From: Gamaleyavirus NAN33P5
Direction: 5' to 3' (one strand)
Length of the DNA stretch: 64,000 nt
Sequence record: OZ035750.1
A program made the translations under genes and the position numbers. The notes beneath the pieces are model-generated. The model did no database searches, was not told the origin of the DNA, and saw only the letters and a program-made list of their open reading frames with translations. How positions within the stretch are numbered: the first letter of the stretch is position 1; each line of letters starts with the position of its first letter. Shown piece by piece: positions 4,532-63,858 of this stretch.

Positions 4532-4562
4532 TCTTAACAAAACAAAATGAACCACAGGAAAT

Positions 4563-21934: not shown

Positions 21935-22450
21935 CTACAGAATTACCCAGTCTTCAGCTAATACATCCGATTGGGATGGAACCCAAGGCATAAACTGGTC
22001 ATCAACAGTTTTGATGCCCAACCAATCCCGTTTCTCGCATACGGTATTCTCATGTTTATCCATAGCCCAATTTTCACCAGGTACTAGGGTGATATACATT
22101 CCCTTACCATTCCAGCCTTTACGGGTCAGTCTGTGACCTAGTTTTATAAGTTCTACTGCGTGACCAAAAGTACAACCCTTATCTACATCACAATATGCAG
22201 CTTCAAATGCAGCCCTCGGTGACCAGCTAATATAACCACGGAATTGCTTATGGTTAGGATTAGAATCCGGGTATTCTACTAAGTAACCTACTTCTAATGG
22301 GTCTTCATTAGCAGGCACATCCCAGCCACGAAGTTTGCAATATGTTTCCTTGTTCATCCGGAATCCATTTACACACTTGGTTCCGATGTAGTTGGTGAAG
22401 TGAACTTTAATTTCTTCGGACATAACTACCTCAAATGATAAAGCCCTCAC
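21935..22450 (-). CDS. hypothetical protein
   Basis: 171-aa ORF on minus strand. Confidence 0.55.
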   Translation of the reverse strand: MRALSFEVVMSEEIKVHFTNYIGTKCVNGFRMNKETYCKLRGWDVPANEDPLEVGYLVEYPDSNPNHKQFRGYISWSPRAAFEAAYCDVDKGCTFGHAVELIKLGHRLTRKGWNGKGMYITLVPGENWAMDKHENTVCEKRDWLGIKTVDDQFMPWVPSQSDVLAEDWVIL

Positions 22451-54476: not shown

Positions 54477-55295
54477 TTAGTCTTCATTTACTAACTCCTT
54501 ATCAGCGAACTCCAGTACAGCTTTGTTGTAGCTGGTTCCCTGATAGTTGATGTGATAGCCCTGAGCGTAAGTACGCCCACGTTTGTCATATTTGTGACCC
54601 AGTGAGAAGTTATTGCCTTCCTGAGTCACTAACTCCATTACTTCCTTAGCAGTACGGCTGTACTTCTCAAAGGCTTTAACTCGTTTCTCATAGTCCTGAC
54701 GGGTTTCACCTTCTTTGGGTTTATCCATATTAGGACGAGAGTCTTTTACATAGTTGGCAACGTCCCAGTTAATGCAAAGACGTTGATTGTTCATACGGTT
54801 GATGTGGTCAAGGCAGACATCCATCTCATGATGGTTCTTCTTGAGGATAATGCTTCCTTTAGTCTGGTAGTAACCAGTATCCCTGTTAGTTCTGACAGGA
54901 TTGGGAGCACTTACAATAGGTAATGGATACTGGAATGCTTCCAGTTCCATCTGGACATCTTCGCTAATCTCATAGATAACACCGAACTTGTCGATAGTAG
55001 GGTCATAGTTGAAGCAGTCATTCTCTGCCATCTTATACAGACAGTCAGCGATATACTGAGCATCATCTGAGTGACTCATGAGAGAGCCAATCATAGTCTG
55101 AATGTCAGCACGTTTATGTAGGGCAATCTGCACCATTGCATCAATGAGCAGCTTATAATCAATTTCTAAATAGGCAGCGAATGCCTTAAAGTCAATTTCT
55201 TTGGAGTCCTCGAATTCCTTCCTCATGCGAGGCAGTAATTGATTTTTATTGAATAGGACTTCAAGCTGCTTCTGATGCTCAATAGATGAGTACAT
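54477..55295 (-). CDS. putative RNAP II small subunit (N-terminal part of split T7-like RNAP)
   Basis: 272-aa ORF directly upstream of the catalytic subunit gene; synteny-based. Confidence 0.4.
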   Translation of the reverse strand: MYSSIEHQKQLEVLFNKNQLLPRMRKEFEDSKEIDFKAFAAYLEIDYKLLIDAMVQIALHKRADIQTMIGSLMSHSDDAQYIADCLYKMAENDCFNYDPTIDKFGVIYEISEDVQMELEAFQYPLPIVSAPNPVRTNRDTGYYQTKGSIILKKNHHEMDVCLDHINRMNNQRLCINWDVANYVKDSRPNMDKPKEGETRQDYEKRVKAFEKYSRTAKEVMELVTQEGNNFSLGHKYDKRGRTYAQGYHINYQGTSYNKAVLEFADKELVNED

Positions 55296-55580: not shown

Positions 55581-55600
55581 CCCCAAAGCTGCGGAGCAGC
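55581..55600 (-). promoter_or_regulatory. vRNAP-type hairpin promoter candidate (drives leftward transcription)
   Basis: Plus (template) strand CCCCAAAG + GCTGC-GGA-GCAGC: conserved CCAAAG block followed by 5-bp stem, 3-nt purine loop. Confidence 0.5.
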
Positions 55601-55606
55601 TATTAC

Positions 55607-55867
55607 CTAACGCTTAGTCCAAAAGGCAATACGAATATTGTTCTCTTGGCCGAGGTAGTTAATACGTACATATAAACCATTGCCGCTAAATTCATTACTT
55701 TTTTCCCGATAAGGCCATACTAGACTACGCATAGGTATTTTAATGAAACCTGATATGTGACCTAACTTAGTACGACCTTTTAATTCGTTCTGTAATGCAC
55801 AATATATGTCATGCCGTGTTAGTGCTCTGGCTCTAACCTGAGCAGACCATAGTTCTTCATATGTCAT
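55607..55867 (-). CDS. small early hypothetical protein
   Basis: 86-aa ORF. Confidence 0.45.
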   Translation of the reverse strand: MTYEELWSAQVRARALTRHDIYCALQNELKGRTKLGHISGFIKIPMRSLVWPYREKSNEFSGNGLYVRINYLGQENNIRIAFWTKR

Positions 55868-56247
55868 TAGAAGATTCCCCAGTAGATATAGTCATCTCCC
55901 AGAATAGGCTTCCAGGCTTCGTCAAACATGACATTGCCGGTAGCATTGGCAAACATAGGAGCAATTTCTTCATCCTTATAGCCAGCCAAACCACAGCCAA
56001 TGCGAGTTACTTTAAAGTCCCACTCCGGGTGTGATGCTGCGTATAGGATGAAAGCATCTACGAATACTTTTATGTCATCCAGTTTCATGGTCTTTATGTT
56101 CTGGTCTTTGGTTGGGATTGCATAGCTGCAACCATAATGACCAACTCCCATTCCATAACGAGCACCATGCTTCTTATACGCAACTTTGGCTGCACCAGCT
56201 CCGTGACGTCCTGCTAAATTACTACCGAATACGAATATCTCTTTCAT
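55867..56247 (-). CDS. early protein with Gly-rich nucleotide-binding-like motif
   Basis: 126 aa; FVFGSNLAGRHGAGAAKVA glycine-rich loop; fold not assigned. Confidence 0.45.
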   Translation of the reverse strand: MKEIFVFGSNLAGRHGAGAAKVAYKKHGARYGMGVGHYGCSYAIPTKDQNIKTMKLDDIKVFVDAFILYAASHPEWDFKVTRIGCGLAGYKDEEIAPMFANATGNVMFDEAWKPILGDDYIYWGIF

Positions 56248-56444
56248 TTACAAGTCTCTCTATTATAAATATAAGCATCGTGTGTGGTCATATTGTTACA
56301 GTTACGTGTCATTTCTAAATAAGTAAGAGCATACTCATGATCACGCTGTTCTTTCTTGGTTCGGCAGTGACCACACTTCTTATCCCATTGGGATACATAG
56401 CCTTTACCACAATTACACTGTTTATTCATTTGAAAGTACTCCAT
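56244..56444 (-). CDS. small Cys-rich (zinc-ribbon-like) protein
   Basis: 66 aa with CNC...CGHC cysteine pairs. Confidence 0.4.
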   Translation of the reverse strand: MEYFQMNKQCNCGKGYVSQWDKKCGHCRTKKEQRDHEYALTYLEMTRNCNNMTTHDAYIYNRETCK

Positions 56445-56689
56445 GGTATGGATTCTAAGTAAGTAATTTTATAAATAATCTTACTTCTTAATTCTCCTCC
56501 AACATCTTGTACATGGATTAGGTTTAACCTTTGAGCTTGGGTTATAGTAGCTGCAAGAGTTCTCTGCATAATATTTGATATTTCTACAAAAGACTTATTA
56601 GATTCCACTAATAATTTTAAGTTAGTATTATCTAGATTATCCCATTCTTTGGAATGGTTCTTTGGCTTACCCATTAGGATTCTCCACAA
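56426..56689 (-). CDS. small early hypothetical protein
   Basis: 87-aa ORF. Confidence 0.4.
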   Translation of the reverse strand: MWRILMGKPKNHSKEWDNLDNTNLKLLVESNKSFVEISNIMQRTLAATITQAQRLNLIHVQDVGGELRSKIIYKITYLESIPWSTFK

Positions 56690-57047
56690 AGTAGTTATAC
56701 ATAGCCTGTACTAGCTTCTCTTTAATAACCTCACCATGACATGGTTTCGGATAACAGAAGCACTGTAAGGCCAGTCCTTTCTCGTCAATGGCTTTATTAC
56801 CCAGACGATTGAGTTCATCCAGTACAACTGGATTACCTTTATCAATCTGTTCTTGTAGCCAGACTTTATACTTAGCAATTACTTGCTCTCTGGTTCCATG
56901 TTTACCAATGACGAATGGATTTCCAAGAGGTGAACCACGTCCAATATACTCACCAGATTTACCGTGATGTTTATTAACAATAATAATTGGACGTGCAGAT
57001 ACACCCAGCAAAGCATTGGTGTTATCGCCTAATGGGATAGTTTTCAT
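56667..57047 (-). CDS. DUF4326-like early protein
   Basis: RGSPLGNPF ... LQCFCYPKPCHG pattern typical of the DUF4326 family common in phages. Confidence 0.3.
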   Translation of the reverse strand: MKTIPLGDNTNALLGVSARPIIIVNKHHGKSGEYIGRGSPLGNPFVIGKHGTREQVIAKYKVWLQEQIDKGNPVVLDELNRLGNKAIDEKGLALQCFCYPKPCHGEVIKEKLVQAMYNYFVENPNG

Positions 57048-57358
57048 GGTTTAAGTACCTGAAATGCGAATACTGGACGTTTACTACGCCACTGGTTCAT
57101 AGCTAATTCACTAGTTTCAGAACCATCATGTAAGTCATAAATAAATGAGATTACATAGTCTGGTTCTTCCGGGAAGTTCTCTGTAGAGAATGGTAAACCT
57201 GATTCCTTAAGGATAGGAACCAGAGGAGATTCAGCATTACAGTAGAGAGTAAACTCTTCATTGAATGCCTGGCTTGTTTGAGATACATAATCAATATTAC
57301 GCATCATTTTATCTACATCAGTAAATGTGGAATCATGAACCACTAGAATAGTTTTCAT
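57044..57358 (-). CDS. small early hypothetical protein
   Basis: 104-aa ORF. Confidence 0.45.
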   Translation of the reverse strand: MKTILVVHDSTFTDVDKMMRNIDYVSQTSQAFNEEFTLYCNAESPLVPILKESGLPFSTENFPEEPDYVISFIYDLHDGSETSELAMNQWRSKRPVFAFQVLKP

Positions 57359-57546
57359 ACTGGCTCCTTGCCTGTAAATGCTACCACTTTTCCTGACATA
57401 TTCCGTATGGTTACCTGTGCTGAATTAACATCAGCGAATTGCTCTGCAACCCAGTTAAGCATCTCAGGGTCATTATTTAATTGTTTTTTAATCATAGTTT
57501 TACTATCTGCTGTTACTAAAGTGATTTCATAATTTTCAATATTCAT
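57355..57546 (-). CDS. small early hypothetical protein
   Basis: 63-aa ORF. Confidence 0.4.
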   Translation of the reverse strand: MNIENYEITLVTADSKTMIKKQLNNDPEMLNWVAEQFADVNSAQVTIRNMSGKVVAFTGKEPV

Positions 57547-57800
57547 ATTACTTTCTCCAGTGTTAGGTAAACGTTATTATCGACAATACTCAAATCACAG
57601 AAACCAATTTCTTCTTGTCTCCCTGAGGATACCCAGATATTATTTTCTGTTAGCTTAGGTTTCTTAGAGAATCCTATTAGTGAGGTATTAGCACTCTTAT
57701 ACTGTCGAGTATATAGAGCTATATACTTAACCCAGTGAGGCACTTGGATAGTATGCCCCATATATTCTACGTTCTTGCCTGTAGGATATGTAATAATCAT
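57543..57800 (-). CDS. small early hypothetical protein
   Basis: 85-aa ORF. Confidence 0.4.
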   Translation of the reverse strand: MIITYPTGKNVEYMGHTIQVPHWVKYIALYTRQYKSANTSLIGFSKKPKLTENNIWVSSGRQEEIGFCDLSIVDNNVYLTLEKVI

Positions 57801-58018
57801 TTCTGATACCCTTGTATATAGTTAATACGACGAATACGTTGAGTAGATGCCTTAACAGCCATCTGTTGATTTTCTTCTTTGTGCTGATTATTTAATAACT
57901 TATCCCATTCTTCCTGGTTCCGTTGTTTCTGTAATATACGACTACAACGTTTATGATTGGCAACTCCACGCCCTTTCTTACAGACTGGGCATATACCATA
58001 ATCGTTTGAGTACATCAT
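57797..58018 (-). CDS. small Cys-containing (CxxC) early protein
   Basis: 73 aa; ICPVCKKG ... HKRCS. Confidence 0.4.
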   Translation of the reverse strand: MMYSNDYGICPVCKKGRGVANHKRCSRILQKQRNQEEWDKLLNNQHKEENQQMAVKASTQRIRRINYIQGYQK

Positions 58019-58323
58019 TGGCTTAAAGCCTCCATTAATATTTTACGAATAACGTTAACATCAGATTCAGTACCAATTAAACCAACAGGTTTCTTAGTAC
58101 TATCTGTTACAAAGGATGCAATCCTTTCCATCTCTGCTGTAATTAATTTGTCACCACTAATAAGACGATTACGAAGGTAGGCTTCATAAGCTACCTCTAT
58201 ATCCTCTACTGTGGTTCTTTCATTACGAGTGAATGGATTACTTAATGGGAAGGGCAAATGTACCCGTATATTCCTGTCAGCTACTTTAGCTAAGTGAGGA
58301 AGTATGCAAACTATTTCATTCAA
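58015..58323 (-). CDS. small early hypothetical protein
   Basis: 102-aa ORF. Confidence 0.45.
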   Translation of the reverse strand: MNEIVCILPHLAKVADRNIRVHLPFPLSNPFTRNERTTVEDIEVAYEAYLRNRLISGDKLITAEMERIASFVTDSTKKPVGLIGTESDVNVIRKILMEALSQ

Positions 58324-58360
58324 GATTATTTCTCCTATTTAAATACATATCTAACTATTC

Positions 58361-58400
58361 AAAAATAAAAAATAGGAGCCTCCTATTGGAGGACTCCTAG
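58361..58400 (-). terminator. hairpin cluster with U tract (minus strand), probable terminator
   Basis: TAGGA-GCC-TCCTA and GGAG..CTCC hairpins adjacent to AAAAATAAAAAAT on plus strand. Confidence 0.35.
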
Positions 58401-59045: not shown

Positions 59046-59267
59046 TCATTGGTTCCTCTTTGCAAACTCTTTTGCTTGTTGCTTGTAGTACTGAGTCATT
59101 GCCTTCTTGTGTTTAACACTGGCAATGAGACACTCGATAGTAACGAATGGCAGCTTAGCAATAAGCAACCACTTATGACGAAATTTCCAGCCTAGAAAGT
59201 AGAAAATTACACAGAAAGCGATGAAGTCTAACATGGTTAATTCCTCTTTTAAGATAGCTCTAATCAT
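59046..59267 (-). CDS. small membrane protein
   Basis: 73 aa, hydrophobic segment FIAFCVIFYFLGW. Confidence 0.4.
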   Translation of the reverse strand: MIRAILKEELTMLDFIAFCVIFYFLGWKFRHKWLLIAKLPFVTIECLIASVKHKKAMTQYYKQQAKEFAKRNQ

Positions 59268-59758
59268 TTACCGTGACGTTCTGTATATCCATGATTCTTA
59301 ATAAAATCTTTAAGTATATTCTCACGGTAGCTTATGGCTAATTGCTTGGCAACTTCATAGCCATTCTTTTGTACACTGAAGCGTTTTTTACGCTGCTTAC
59401 CTGTAATAGGGTCTATCCATTGAGTACACCAATACTCAATGCCACTATCAATTCTATTGGTTACACCTGTAACACCTGAATTGTTGTTAGAGTAAATACT
59501 CTTATTCTTCATGTTTACTGCTTTTGGTATGCAACGTAGGTTAACTAACCTACAGTCCCAACGGATACCATTTACATGGTCTATCTCATACCCTTCAGGT
59601 ATAGCACCGTTGATTTGCTCCCAAATCCATACATGTAAAAGTACGGTTTTACCATCACGTTTTACATATATGTATCCATTGGTATGTGAGTCTTCAGCTG
59701 TATAACATTTAGCCAATTCTTGGGCAGATTTTAGCCAGTATCCTCTAGGTTTTCTCAT
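59264..59758 (-). CDS. HNH homing endonuclease (free-standing) with AP2-like domain
   Basis: HVWIWEQINGAIPEGYEIDHVNGIRWDCRLVNL HNH core; C-terminal SGVTGVTNRIDSGIEYWCTQW AP2-like; 164 aa. Confidence 0.7.
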   Translation of the reverse strand: MRKPRGYWLKSAQELAKCYTAEDSHTNGYIYVKRDGKTVLLHVWIWEQINGAIPEGYEIDHVNGIRWDCRLVNLRCIPKAVNMKNKSIYSNNNSGVTGVTNRIDSGIEYWCTQWIDPITGKQRKKRFSVQKNGYEVAKQLAISYRENILKDFIKNHGYTERHGK

Positions 59759-59823: not shown

Positions 59824-59852
59824 AAAATAAAAGGACTCCCCGAAGGGAGTCC
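59824..59852 (-). terminator. rho-independent terminator (minus strand)
   Basis: GGACTCCC-TTCG-GGGAGTCC on minus strand followed by TTTTATTTTC. Confidence 0.6.
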
Positions 59853-59861
59853 TGTGGTTGA

Positions 59862-60245
59862 TTAGAAAGTCAGTTTACGAGCATATTTATTCTCGTCTGC
59901 TGGGATGTCAGCAGCTTCTGCTTTCACACGACGAAGTTGAACTTGCAGGTTAATGATACCTTCTTCACCTGGTTCCAGGTTCTGAGCATATTCGATTAAC
60001 TGTTCCAGCAAATCGTTCTGTGCACAACGCATAGCACGGAAGTCAGCATTGCTGCTGTTAGTAGGCAGTGGTTCCTGAGTATCCAGTGGAATACCAGTAG
60101 GCAGAGAGATGAACTTCTCTTCTTCAGAACCTTCATTAGCAACATAACCAATGTTCAGCCAGAACTGAGCTTTAGGCTTAGCAGTTTTAGTTTCAGTGGT
60201 AGCAGCAGCGTTAGATTGACCGAAAGTGAATTTTTGAATAGACAT
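59862..60245 (-). CDS. early hypothetical protein
   Basis: ORF 59862-60344; start placed at internal ATG 60245 (MSIQKF) which has a GGAGAG RBS. Confidence 0.45.
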
Positions 60246-60348
60246 TTTGTACTCTCCAGATTGATAAATGTTTGATTTATGGGTTTGTCCGTCGGTGACT
60301 AAACCCAAGAAAAGACTTAAGATTTCAATGATTAGTGGATGCATAAAT

Positions 60349-60370
60349 CATCCAAAAGCTGCAGAGCAGC
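60349..60370 (-). promoter_or_regulatory. vRNAP-type hairpin promoter candidate (drives leftward transcription)
   Basis: Plus strand CATCCAAAAG + GCTGC-AGA-GCAGC. Confidence 0.5.
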
Positions 60371-60631: not shown

Positions 60632-60652
60632 ATCCAATAGATGCGGAGCATC
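60632..60652 (-). promoter_or_regulatory. vRNAP-type hairpin promoter candidate (drives leftward transcription)
   Basis: Plus strand ATCCAATAG + GATGC-GGA-GCATC. Confidence 0.5.
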
Positions 60653-60938: not shown

Positions 60939-61262
60939 TTAGTCTTTAGTCAGGATGTCGATTACTTTTGAATATTCTGCGTTATAGATACGAGCGTTTT
61001 CTGAATCTTTGCAGAATTCTTCGATACTTTTCTTACGCATAGTCTCGTTCATAGCTGTTTCTTCAGCTAATTTGTTTACGAATGTATGCATTTCTAATTT
61101 AGTACGGATGGCTTGTTTCTCTGCCATAGTACTTACATATGAATTAAGCATACCTACTGCTTTAGTAGCTGTGCCGAATGTATCTGCAACAGTAGTAGCA
61201 GCAGAGTTAACAGTACCAAGTAAAGTTCCTGCGGTCATACGTACAGTAGCGGTAGTAGTCAT
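60939..61262 (-). CDS. early hypothetical protein
   Basis: ORF 60939-61448; start placed at ATG 61262 (MTTTATV, GGAG RBS) because a promoter hairpin lies inside the longer frame. Confidence 0.4.
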   Translation of the reverse strand: MTTTATVRMTAGTLLGTVNSAATTVADTFGTATKAVGMLNSYVSTMAEKQAIRTKLEMHTFVNKLAEETAMNETMRKKSIEEFCKDSENARIYNAEYSKVIDILTKD

Positions 61263-61298
61263 GATGATAGCTCCAATAGTTGATGATAGGACGACATG

Positions 61299-61318
61299 TC
61301 CATAACATGCGGAGCATG
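61299..61318 (-). promoter_or_regulatory. vRNAP-type hairpin promoter candidate (drives leftward transcription)
   Basis: Plus strand TCCATAA + CATGC-GGA-GCATG. Confidence 0.5.
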
Positions 61319-61478
61319 TGTAACGTGTAAGGTGGGGTAGGGTAGTGGCTACAGGGTCAACATACCGGGGGGGGATGGTTGAGTGTAAGGGTGTAGCCCC
61401 AGCCACACCACTGTAGTCATACATAGCTATCAACATTTTGGTATGCAAAAATATTATAACTATCTCACTTATAAGCAG

Positions 61479-61817
61479 TTAAATAGGAGGTGAGATTCGG
61501 GTGATAATACGAGCTATGCCAGAGTAATAATCAGGATGGTTAGGGTTACCACTACTATGTCTTACGGCAGCATCTTTGATAAACACATGAGCATAATCAC
61601 CTAATAAGATGAAGGCTGACTCACCATTTTGCAGGATAACTATCTCTGCATTGCTGTTAGTAAGTAGCTTATGCCCTTGTGCAAAGTCTGCTAACTCTCC
61701 TGGTTCCATTATTAGTGTGGAATCCCCATAGGACATAAGGTGGATGATTGCTTTCTCTGGTTCAGAAGAGTAGTGCAGTAAGTCAGTACCACTCATGCCT
61801 AAGAGTTTAATGTTCAT
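61479..61817 (-). CDS. small early protein (paralog family member)
   Basis: 112 aa; shares an ILEPG/IMEPGE-type segment with ORFs 62086-62370 and 63568-63858. Confidence 0.4.
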   Translation of the reverse strand: MNIKLLGMSGTDLLHYSSEPEKAIIHLMSYGDSTLIMEPGELADFAQGHKLLTNSNAEIVILQNGESAFILLGDYAHVFIKDAAVRHSSGNPNHPDYYSGIARIITRISPPI

Positions 61818-62085
61818 ACTTTAGTACCTGCTTGAGAAGACTATCCATGTAATAACAGTATGCCTCGGAGGATTCATCATTAATTGGTAAGCCAACGAAG
61901 CCAAGGGTGTATATGCAGAAGTGATTAAGTTCATGAACCAATGTGATAGGGTTGCTATCCTGTACATAGATAAGTACCGAACCATCGGGGAGTAGTGTAG
62001 TAACACCTTTACTTTGCTCCCCTGGTTCAATGCCTTTAGTTTTCTTGTACTTCTAACTGTACCGGATAGGGAGATGTGTTTAGTT

Positions 62086-62370
62086 TCATTGCCTTTCCTT
62101 ATAGATTGGGGTGTTATCCTCGAAGGATAGTATGTACTTGTCCGTATTGAGATGCCATGGACTGAAGCCATCCTGCCAGGACATGGGTGTTCCTGGTTCA
62201 AGTAGATGTACTTCTGCTTTCTTATTGTATAAGAAAATTAATCCTTGTAGCTCATGCAGGGACTGCTCGTCTGGAACGAGGATAAGTACATCAGCAACTA
62301 GGTTAGCTACTTCTTTATGATGGGTGTATTCATCCCAAGGTAGCTCTGAATAAATTTTACTGATAACCAT
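62086..62370 (-). CDS. small early protein (paralog family member)
   Basis: 94 aa; LHELQGLIFLYNKKAEVHLLEPGT aligns with FHELSGIMLLENRPGVTILEPQET of ORF 63568-63858. Confidence 0.4.
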   Translation of the reverse strand: MVISKIYSELPWDEYTHHKEVANLVADVLILVPDEQSLHELQGLIFLYNKKAEVHLLEPGTPMSWQDGFSPWHLNTDKYILSFEDNTPIYKERQ

Positions 62371-62684
62371 TAGTAGCTCTCGTCGCTAGATAAATATGAG
62401 GAAGGATAGAGGGTAATGAGTCTACCTGTAAGAGTAGTAGCTACCATAGGTTCACAGGAGGAGAAGATGTATACAGCGACATCCTCCGGAACTTCAATGG
62501 AAGTATCTATCCTAATAAAGGTAATAGGTGCACCTAACATTAAACAGGTTCCGATGAACTCATCTGCTTTTTCACATTGTTCATAGTACATGGTCATGGG
62601 TTTACTTATTCCCAACCATGGAGATTTACCTACCCCCAGATTAAGGGGACAGGTACTACGACTACTTAAACCATAGAAGTGCAT
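62370..62684 (-). CDS. small early hypothetical protein
   Basis: 104-aa ORF. Confidence 0.4.
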   Translation of the reverse strand: MHFYGLSSRSTCPLNLGVGKSPWLGISKPMTMYYEQCEKADEFIGTCLMLGAPITFIRIDTSIEVPEDVAVYIFSSCEPMVATTLTGRLITLYPSSYLSSDESY

Positions 62685-62687
62685 GGC

Positions 62688-63002
62688 TTACTTCCTTACG
62701 TAATAGTAACGGTATTCGTCATTCTCATGGCGACTATCCCATTGGTATTCATCGGATACCATCATGAAAGGTAGAGCGTCATATGCATCGCTAAAGGAGT
62801 AGACGGAAGGTGGGACAATACATACAACCTTACGGTCATTACCCGCTAAGAATAATTGGTCCCTTACTTCATGGTAGTCCTCTAAGGTAGGAACTAGGAT
62901 TACACGTTGTGGGCTACTATTCATGACTTCTTCTAAAGAGAAGTCAGTTGTGTACAGGGATTCCCCTTTAATAAAACTGGGGGCGGTCATTATGAATTTC
63001 AT
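62688..63002 (-). CDS. small early hypothetical protein
   Basis: 104-aa ORF. Confidence 0.4.
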   Translation of the reverse strand: MKFIMTAPSFIKGESLYTTDFSLEEVMNSSPQRVILVPTLEDYHEVRDQLFLAGNDRKVVCIVPPSVYSFSDAYDALPFMMVSDEYQWDSRHENDEYRYYYVRK

Positions 63003-63366
63003 GATTGATTCTCCTTCCTTTAGGGATAGGTCTGAAGTAAATGGAAAGTGTCTTATTAAAGACGTTATGGTCAGCTATCAATTCCCAACCATCTATCTTA
63101 TAGAAGCGTACACCAGGGAAGATCATATGGAAGTCACTGTAAAAGGAAAGATCATACACCTTTGGTTCAGTAAGTATCTTAGTATTGAGTTGCAGGTTGG
63201 ATAGGAAAAGAGAACCAATAACCTCATGGGACTCTTCGCAGTCAGGTAAGAATACTGTTTGCCACGGGGTAATGAACTTACTTACTACTTCTGGTTCCGC
63301 AAGGTAATAGGGTTCTTGCTTGCGTAATACTCCGGTAATATCAATATCAAAAAAGTAGATGCTCAT
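62968..63366 (-). CDS. small early hypothetical protein
   Basis: 132-aa ORF. Confidence 0.4.
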   Translation of the reverse strand: MSIYFFDIDITGVLRKQEPYYLAEPEVVSKFITPWQTVFLPDCEESHEVIGSLFLSNLQLNTKILTEPKVYDLSFYSDFHMIFPGVRFYKIDGWELIADHNVFNKTLSIYFRPIPKGRRINHEIHNDRPQFY

Positions 63367-63380
63367 AATTGCATACCTCC

Positions 63381-63418
63381 AGAAAAAGAAATGGGGTAGA
63401 GCCTCTCGACCCTACCCC
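63381..63418 (-). terminator. rho-independent terminator (minus strand)
   Basis: GGGGTAGGGTCGAGAGGCTCTACCCC on minus strand followed by ATTTCTTTTTC. Confidence 0.5.
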
Positions 63419-63567
63419 TTACCGTTTTCAATCACGGGTCAGTTCATCCCCCTAGGTACTTATGTACCGTTAGACCTACGGAGTAGGAAAGGAGCCGGGG
63501 AACCCTGACTGTAGAAGTTATTAACTCTTTACGAGTACCGCCACTGTCTACTAGGCGGCATGACTAA

Positions 63568-63858
63568 TCACATCGTCACCGTCATCCGAACGCTATCTTT
63601 GCTTCGTTTGATGGAGACACTATGGGGTAATCTTGTGAAGAACACAAGAGCTGAACTAGACTTTTCTAAAGAGTAAGTTTCTTGTGGTTCTAAGATGGTA
63701 ACACCGGGACGGTTCTCTAATAACATGATTCCAGACAACTCATGGAATGCATCTTCGTCATGGGTAAGGATTATATCACCTGAAAGAATGCCAGCCTTGG
63801 TGTGGTCTAGCTCCTTGTATTCGTCTTTAGAGTCTTGGACTCTCATATAGATCCTCAA
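63568..63858 (-). CDS. small early protein (paralog family member)
   Basis: 96-aa ORF; shares conserved segment with 62086-62370. Confidence 0.4.
   Translation of the reverse strand: MRIYMRVQDSKDEYKELDHTKAGILSGDIILTHDEDAFHELSGIMLLENRPGVTILEPQETYSLEKSSSALVFFTRLPHSVSIKRSKDSVRMTVTM

Follow-up and report, generated by a model that had tools for sequence, protein, structure and literature searches.

What do the small genes upstream of the RNA polymerase genes of N4-like phages encode, and what does the glycine-rich loop in one of their products bind? The question is raised by a locus of Gamaleyavirus NAN33P5, analysed here within a 64,000-nucleotide stretch of record OZ035750.1 (hereafter the window). 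An original prediction, made from the letters of this DNA, had described promoter-proximal early genes with conserved folds of unknown role, pointing to a possible nucleotide- or phosphate-binding loop, a DUF4326 protein and two small Cys-rich proteins; it had named them as candidates for host-takeover or anti-defence functions and structure prediction as a check. All open reading frames (ORFs) that it named are confirmed at their coordinates, each on the minus strand. We find that the loop belongs to a compact macrodomain (ORF-A), encoded near a zinc-ribbon protein and a DUF4326 protein (ORF-B), and that the three genes correspond to gp12, gp13 and gp14 of coliphage N4. Our preferred reading, which we hold tentatively, is that this cassette would be an early counter-defence module that erases or processes ADP-ribose, with a DarT2-type adduct as the favoured target. 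The three genes are as follows (aa, amino acids).

55867–56247, minus strand: ORF-A, compact macrodomain (126 aa), N4 gp14 orthologue, assigned by NCBIfam, AlphaFold2 (AF2) and hhalign
56244–56444, minus strand: gp13-like zinc-ribbon protein (66 aa) with six Cys (CxC-x12-CxxC-RTK), 64% identical to N4 gp13
56667–57047, minus strand: ORF-B, DUF4326 protein (126 aa; Pfam PF14216), N4 gp12 orthologue and relative of T4 NrdA.1

The macrodomain, its partners and their fusions

In N4, gp12 (annotated as DUF4326), gp13 (61 aa) and gp14 (126 aa) are contiguous, with stop-to-start overlaps, and lie directly upstream of gp15/gp16. Identity to the N4 proteins is 96% for ORF-B and gp12, 64% for the zinc-ribbon protein and gp13, and 73% for ORF-A and gp14. 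The ORFs discussed here are not chance reading frames, given their strong PHROG family matches (E 1e-15 to 1e-59), the NCBIfam match of ORF-A and the large numbers of homologues.

ORF-A reads MKEIFVFGSNLAGRHGAGAAK..., and the glycine-rich stretch FGSNLAGRHGAGAA, the loop quoted in the original prediction, comprises its residues 7–20. The protein reaches the cut-off of no Pfam model but scores 160.7 bits (E 1.2e-47) with NCBIfam NF049995 (A1S_2505 family phage non-structural protein), for which the cut-off is 45. Its homologues number more than 8000 and go under names such as 'Macro domain_Poa1p family', 'ADP-ribosylglycohydrolase' and 'O-acetyl-ADP-ribose deacetylase'; the second of these is imprecise, since it denotes the unrelated ARH/DraG fold and the proteins are macrodomains. 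Structure prediction, the check proposed at the outset, returned a macrodomain: the AF2 model of ORF-A (pLDDT 95.7) has the three-layer alpha/beta/alpha macro fold, and its comparison table lists M. tuberculosis DarG (10.0), the Chikungunya nsP3 macrodomain (9.6), Poa1p (8.7), the BT1257-like structure 2afc (8.6), T. africanus DarTG (8.5) and TARG1 (8.3). TARG1/OARD1 was also the choice of an independent profile search of PDB sequences (E ~0.3), which aligned IPTK47 with ITK84 and the RIGCGL stretches of the two proteins with each other, and hhalign gave a probability of 85% for the same pair, again with K47 opposite K84. Against PhiKZ gp104, a phage macrodomain of the AdfM type, hhalign placed FGSN10 on TVN23 and PTK47D on PTK78D. 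Single-sequence PDB searches with ORF-A and ORF-B gave nothing significant, and we regard a Pfam match of ORF-A to 5-FTHF cyclo-ligase (E 0.018, below cut-off) and a match to 7arc (E 0.034) as noise.

The elements that define the putative active site of ORF-A are N10, H15, K47, loop 1 (G8–A20) and loop 2 (I83–G89). Conservation was assessed in 129 independent loci, 80 viral and 49 bacterial. The GSNxxGxHGxGAA and IGCGLAG loops, which align with the loops of TARG1 and AdfM, are almost invariant across this sample; N10 is present in 128 of the 129 loci and K47 in 122, with virtually no variation at H15, at T46 or at the glycines of either loop. In alignments, the catalytic Asn and Lys of DarG and AdfM fall opposite N10 and K47. 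The Lys84–Asp125 dyad of TARG1 is not reproduced, as the position of Asp125 is occupied by an invariant Ala88, and the equivalent Asp is missing from AdfM too. The glycine-rich loop is loop 1 of a macrodomain, an ADP-ribose-binding fold. The suspicion of a nucleotide- or phosphate-binding site was thus right in substance, although the loop is not of the Walker type; a P-loop NTPase is ruled out by the fold and by the absence of a Walker A pattern. From the conserved residues we infer that ORF-A is an ADP-ribosyl hydrolase, a prediction that extends to its substrate as discussed below.

A divergent gp14 allele of 116 aa, about 50% identical to that of the window, occurs in Mimir124, St11Ph5 and ECBP1 (L001:3271-3621(-), L089:2501-2851(+) and L090:2501-2851(+)). 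Its loop 1 is changed from GSN..GRHGAGAA to TTN..GQH(N/T)NAAA and its loop 2 (TRIGCGLAG) is deleted, with N10, K47 and D48 kept. The changed positions are invariant in the 129 other loci, and both loops are intact in the window and in N4; the loop-destroyed allele is either a pseudo-enzyme or a protein with a new function.

ORF-B matches Pfam DUF4326 at E 2.4e-22, with 79.8 bits against a gathering threshold of 25, in agreement with the pattern first noticed in it. R37, C96, C98, P100 and C103 are invariant in the DUF4326 alignment and G36, L41, G42, N43, P44, R53, Y60, L94 and H104 nearly so, and the R...CxCxPxxCH signature of the family is present in ORF-B. A full scan of 1.84 billion representatives yielded 5565 DUF4326 clusters, mostly stand-alone proteins of 100–130 aa. 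The AF2 model of ORF-B (pLDDT 92.9) suggests a minimal PTP/rhodanese-like fold, and its CxCx4CH cluster may be catalytic or, just as well, bind zinc. The canonical C-X5-R motif is absent from ORF-B, where C96-X5 ends at Pro102 and C98-X5 at His104, and the only invariant Arg of the family, R37, is supplied by another loop. Iyer et al. (2022; PMC9503650) placed DUF4326 in the rhodanese-phosphatase superfamily and predicted that it strips ribose-linked phosphates from ADP-ribose or its breakdown products. With this published prediction, and with ORF-A in a well-understood enzyme superfamily, the description of these folds as being of unknown role does not hold. T4 NrdA.1 (L093:8672-8998, minus strand) likewise belongs to DUF4326, with an hhalign probability of 98.7%; its gene and the start of nrdA overlap. 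This makes the label 'ribonucleotide reductase NrdA-like' (PHROG and pharokka) misleading for ORF-B, and we reject it, like the PHROG label 'DNA repair protein', as gene-name carry-over. In the closest public record, OY979416.1 (97–100% identical here), a tRNA-Ile, a tRNA-Undet and many 'pseudo' coding sequences are annotated across the part that encodes DUF4326; since ARAGORN detects no tRNA there in the window's copy, these tRNAs look like an annotation artefact.

The zinc-ribbon protein, whose six Cys bear out the earlier description as Cys-rich, is encoded by a gene whose stop codon overlaps the start of ORF-A, and in the six closest viral loci this gene is directly upstream of the macro gene. 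All three families are further linked by fusions. Among 29 longer DUF4326 proteins, the partner domains are SLOG (11), NADAR (4) and Macro (1). In P0262, an A1S_2505-type macrodomain (residues 16–126, E 7e-39) is fused to DUF4326, which joins the families of ORF-A and ORF-B in one protein; in P0250, encoded on a phage-like contig beside thioredoxin and DNA polymerase A, the partner of DUF4326 is a DarG-type macrodomain (E 2.5e-65). The gp13 motif (CxC...CxxCRTK) precedes DUF4326 as an N-terminal fusion in locus L067, and 6 of 150 DUF4326 representatives also carry it fused. Bacterial macrodomains of the ORF-A type are fused to NADAR (L120:848-1792, plus strand), to SLOG and to a bona fide DSP-PTPase, in the last case with the catalytic Lys replaced by Met (L133:1914-3473, plus strand). 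On a viral contig the macrodomain is fused to an RNase H-like domain (L069:9674-10837, plus strand), and crAss-like polyvalent proteins with a helicase or ART-PolyVal annotation contain it as an internal domain. Several bacterial macro homologues (e.g. L118, L105 and L163) carry C-terminal extensions of 150–200 aa without a Pfam match.

Candidate roles of the cassette

In the mechanism that we favour, (i) ORF-A, as a minimal macrodomain of the DarG/TARG1/Poa1p branch, would hold ADP-ribose between its two glycine-rich loops; (ii) Asn10 and Lys47 would cleave the bond at ribose C1'', the favoured target being nucleic-acid-linked ADP-ribose such as DarT2-type thymine-ADP-ribose on single-stranded phage DNA, so that the protein would serve as an orphan-antitoxin-like factor of the AdfM kind; and (iii) ORF-B, together with its zinc-ribbon partner gp13, would be a cysteine-dependent phosphoesterase-like enzyme of the rhodanese/PTP superfamily, acting on the ribose-linked phosphate of ORF-A's substrate or of its breakdown product. 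A nucleic-acid-linked substrate is favoured because of the DarG/AdfM-type residues, two experimental precedents and fusion partners of the nucleic-acid type. The orphan phage macrodomains T4 Tk.4 and PhiKZ gp104 (both AdfM) have recently been shown to neutralise DarTG2, and in PhiKZ AdfM the active site was assigned to N23 and K78, the equivalents of T. aquaticus DarG2 N22 and K80 (PMC13309987). By this precedent, the anti-defence role originally suggested for the locus is plausible for the cassette.

Several observations weigh against this reading. At the level of the macrodomain, ORF-A has no match to Pfam Macro (PF01661) at E <= 0.1 and none to the DarG models NCBIfam NF048014 and PADLOC PDLC02990 at E <= 1, whereas the same two models detect PhiKZ gp104 (4.9e-40 and 4.4e-39) and T4 Tk.4 (2.5e-7 and 1.3e-9); ORF-A thus belongs to a separate, divergent macro family and, judged by these profiles, not to the DarG/AdfM sequence family. 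It also lacks the N-terminal ~30 residues of canonical macrodomains. DarT is absent from the 25 neighbour families listed, of 41 detected, around the 49 bacterial homologues. At the level of the pair, only 17 of the 80 viral macro loci include DUF4326 in the sequence fetched, with the nearest copy ≤3 kb away; most of the 17 are N4-like contigs, whose common ancestry accounts for the adjacency. Many DUF4326 genes of T4-like and jumbo phages adjoin ribonucleotide reductase (RNR) genes rather than macro genes, and a transposon screen of T4 with DarTG2 recovered tk.4 alone and not nrdA.1. Finally, Mimir124, St11Ph5 and ECBP1 keep DUF4326 at 90–95% identity despite their loop-destroyed gp14, which implies that the two enzymes need not work together; DUF4326 may be independent of the macrodomain.

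A possible alternative is that the cassette degrades soluble NAD-derived molecules (ADPr-1''-phosphate, ADPr>P, gcADPR or His-ADPR) and thereby blunts defences of the TIR/Thoeris or RES type. We consider soluble ADP-ribose derivatives almost as likely to be the substrate as nucleic-acid-linked ADP-ribose. Just such a role has been predicted from context for phage proteins of the Macro, NADAR, SLOG and DUF4326 families (PMC9503650), and the recurrent fusion of the macrodomain to phosphatase-type domains, SLOG and NADAR agrees with it, as do the bacterial neighbourhoods, where NrtR/Nudix (two loci) and an ADP-ribosylglycohydrolase are listed and DarT is not. The presence of the macrodomain in most Schitoviridae, whatever the host, points the same way. 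The conserved Asn and Lys, however, characterise DarG, AdfM and TARG1, whose substrates are macromolecular adducts, and both phage macrodomains tested so far counter DNA ADP-ribosylation; the RNase H-like, helicase and ART-PolyVal fusions and the basic zinc ribbon likewise point to nucleic acid. Moreover, the phage already has a Tad2-like sponge domain for gcADPR-type signals. This domain (Thoeris anti-defence 2; PF11195, E 8e-24, residues 85–161) lies in a protein of 162 aa encoded beside the vRNAP gene (21935–22423, minus strand), next to a gene of the N4 gp49/Sf6 gp66 family (22542–22934), and by its Pfam match the protein would be a second countermeasure in this genome against NAD-derived signals. 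N4-like phages carry many nucleotide sponges (bioRxiv 10.64898/2026.06.04.730250); the anti-signalling hotspot described there, near primase, SSB and RuvC, is not the present locus.

It is also conceivable, though unlikely in our judgement, that the neighbours are unrelated: the macrodomain would be an ADP-ribose hydrolase, DUF4326 would serve nucleotide metabolism, for example by dephosphorylating nucleotides or sugar phosphates or by assisting dNTP synthesis as a thiol/redox protein, and their adjacency would be inherited synteny. DUF4326 is found in 887 phage records and the macrodomain in 458, so that DUF4326 mostly occurs without it. The overlap of T4 nrdA.1 with the start of nrdA, the RNR neighbourhoods in other T4-like and jumbo phages, the thioredoxin and DNA polymerase genes beside P0250, the failure of the DarTG2 screen to recover nrdA.1 and the 90–96% identity of DUF4326 where gp14 is degenerate would all fit such a role. 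On the other side, fusions of DUF4326 to the A1S_2505 macrodomain, to a DarG-type macrodomain, to NADAR and to SLOG are hard to understand without shared chemistry, gp12, gp13 and gp14 are translationally coupled in N4, and N4-like phages are without RNR.

Quite unlikely, in our estimation, is a stricter form of cooperation, in which gp12, gp13 and gp14 would be a three-part system whose DUF4326 enzyme, guided by the zinc ribbon, and Lys-type macrodomain act in sequence on a nucleic-acid ADP-ribose(-phosphate) mark other than that of DarT2. This mark may be a host modification or belong to a defence not yet described, and most N4-like phages may retain the system because ADP-ribosylation directed at single-stranded DNA would find their single-stranded hairpin promoters and replication intermediates especially exposed. 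If true, it would provide the first function for DUF4326, including T4 NrdA.1 and the 5565 clusters. Very unlikely is a non-catalytic ORF-A that binds ADP-ribose as a sponge or reader, like Tad/Acb-type sponges or macroH2A-type readers, since N10, H15, T46 and K47 are (nearly) invariant, their counterparts in DarG, AdfM and TARG1 serve catalysis and the fusion partners are enzymes, even though many macrodomains only bind, ORF-A lacks the canonical N-terminus and misses Pfam Macro, and nucleotide sponges abound in N4-like phages.

Operon, promoter-type hairpins and neighbouring genes

A megablast search with 55600–58400 returned 75 phage records at 88–97% identity, nearly all of them Gamaleyavirus (Schitoviridae, N4-like) phages of Escherichia, Shigella or Klebsiella. 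Ten minus-strand ORFs, overlapping start to stop from 58323 down to 55607, make up a single compact operon, and the genes for RNAP1-B and RNAP2-A (N4 gp15 and gp16) come after it at 55295–53052. Besides the cassette, the operon includes the following genes.

56426–56689, minus strand: lineage-specific ORF of 82–87 aa between the DUF4326 and zinc-ribbon genes (phrog_37989, E 3.5e-57)
57797–58018, minus strand: small CCHC protein (73 aa), directly downstream of the degenerate paralogue (phrog_6887, E 1.6e-42)
58015–58323, minus strand: degenerate DUF4326 paralogue, N4 gp9 orthologue (phrog_464, E 2.1e-15; BLASTP to ORF-B, E 4e-8)

The lineage-specific ORF has no Pfam or NCBIfam match and is absent from N4 and Mimir124, where gp12 and gp13 abut directly; it probably stands outside the conserved module. 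The paralogue has lost R37 and the entire CxCxPxxCH motif, as has N4 gp9 (L086:2805-3119), and is presumably non-catalytic for this reason; as N4 has kept the gp9-type copy too, an old duplication appears to have retained a non-catalytic copy. The CCHC protein has three Cys and one His (CxxC-x8-H-x2-C), so that 'Cys-rich', apt for the zinc ribbon, was an overstatement here. Homology between the CCHC protein and the gp13-like protein is unsupported (E 0.59), and N4 gp10 was rejected as its counterpart, there being no significant similarity. On sequence comparison, the link to the module is thus confined to 56244–56444 and undetectable for 57797–58018. Another operon ORF, of 63 aa (57355–57546, minus strand), has no Pfam match and a weak partial PHROG match (phrog_2102, E 1.4e-4, residues 16–46) to Dmd, the antitoxin of T4 against RnlA/LsoA.

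The timing of the cassette was approached through hairpins in and around the early region.

55588–55600, plus strand (template strand): vRNAP-type hairpin GCTGC-GGA-GCAGC, found by pattern search, just downstream of the cassette
58379–58392, minus strand: terminator-like hairpin with T-run, 56 nt upstream of the ten-gene operon
60358–60370, plus strand: AGA-loop hairpin GCTGC-AGA-GCAGC, a weaker promoter candidate
60640–60652, plus strand: vRNAP-type hairpin GATGC-GGA-GCATC, ~460 nt from the inferred left genome end

The three promoter-type hairpins have a 5-bp stem and a GGA or AGA loop and lie on the template strand of the minus-strand genes. In N4 early promoters, the vRNAP hairpin loop is -10G/-11G/-12A (PMC4496689), a form shared by the hairpins at 60640–60652 and 55588–55600. 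These two match the N4 core GCGGAGC at 562–568 and 4551–4557, respectively, the latter lying between gp14 and gp15. Early transcription towards the cassette likely begins at the hairpin at 60640–60652, and the operon would be reached either by read-through of the hairpin at 58379–58392 or from its own AT-rich (middle-type) promoter. Synteny with N4 places the cassette in the early block and suggests early timing, as originally supposed. The cassette is not promoter-proximal, though, since it would lie at the distal end of this unit, 3.6–4.8 kb downstream of the first promoter hairpins at ~60.4–60.65 kb.

Further features were noted outside the operon. The window is circularly permuted relative to virion DNA, with the left terminus at ~61100 as inferred from the Mimir124 terminal repeat, and small minus-strand ORFs run on to 63.8 kb (60939–63846), though the GC skew flips sign there. 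An HNH/AP2-type homing-endonuclease-like ORF (59264–59758, minus strand) lies within the early region; just upstream of it, and directly after a gp2-like gene (59862–60344), is a strong terminator-like hairpin (59832–59853, minus strand; 9-bp stem with 6 GC pairs, T-run). Elsewhere, the ORF at 31072–31548 (minus strand) matches in position a Mimir124 gene labelled '3'-phosphatase, 5'-polynucleotide kinase' (phrog 7063); it has no Pfam match, and with no RNA ligase or KptA seen, any RNA-repair pathway requiring an Appr-1''-p phosphatase looks incomplete. No phage-encoded ADP-ribosyltransferase that the macrodomain might reverse was seen among 45 other ORFs of the window, a set without the large structural genes and vRNAP, nor in the N4 and Mimir124 annotations; the same 45 ORFs contain no NADAR or Nudix gene either.

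Significance and comparison with known systems

The macro and DUF4326 families are already catalogued and the idea of ADP-ribose counter-defence has been published; our literature search found no paper on N4 gp12, gp13 or gp14, or on the macro family of ORF-A in Schitoviridae. For N4, a classical model phage, these three genes gain a concrete and cheaply testable hypothesis, and most Schitoviridae would join the phages with a predicted orphan antitoxin-like ADP-ribose eraser. This might bear on host range on hosts with DarTG, Thoeris or other ADP-ribose-based defences and so on the choice of N4-like therapeutic phages, and closely related Gamaleyaviruses with intact and loop-destroyed macro alleles offer a natural comparison. 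The large DUF4326 family, which includes T4 NrdA.1, also gains a link to a zinc-ribbon partner as well as to the chemistry of macro, NADAR and SLOG domains.

Compared with N4, the three genes of the cassette are direct orthologues in the same order and at the same position, upstream of the RNAPII genes and the vRNAP hairpin; the window differs by the extra ORF of 82–87 aa between the gp12 and gp13 genes and by a few other lineage-specific small operon genes. For DUF4326, the Macro, NADAR and SLOG fusions described by Iyer et al. (2022) are reproduced here. T4 NrdA.1 shares the Pfam DUF4326 domain with ORF-B but is encoded beside nrdA, whereas ORF-B is encoded in the early region beside a macro gene. 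The RapZ C-terminal domain (5o5q and 5o5s), which has only 10–15% identity to ORF-B, is a binding/adaptor domain without the Cys/His cluster that ORF-B possesses.

Among macrodomain systems, DarG of M. tuberculosis (5m3i), T. aquaticus and T. africanus (7omu) is about 18% identical to ORF-A, which has neither the C-terminal DarT-binding domain nor an adjacent DarT nor a match to the DarG hidden Markov models (HMMs). Of the Poa1p-like macrodomains, human TARG1/OARD1 and yeast Poa1p, TARG1 shares the RIGCGL loop 2 and the lysine (K47 with K84) at an hhalign probability of 85%; it differs in Asp125, replaced by Ala88, and in N-terminal strands that ORF-A lacks. A parallel in phages is AdfM (T4 Tk.4 and PhiKZ gp104). 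ORF-A is some 30–35 residues shorter, forms a separate family (NCBIfam A1S_2505), does not match the DarG HMMs as both AdfMs do and is coupled to DUF4326 and a zinc ribbon; protection against DarTG2 is proven for both AdfMs, and activity against DarT2 is predicted for ORF-A. Like AdfM, ORF-A is nevertheless a stand-alone phage macrodomain without a cognate toxin, on the DarG-like branch of the fold, with the same Asn and Lys and, in common with PhiKZ gp104, the PTKD motif.

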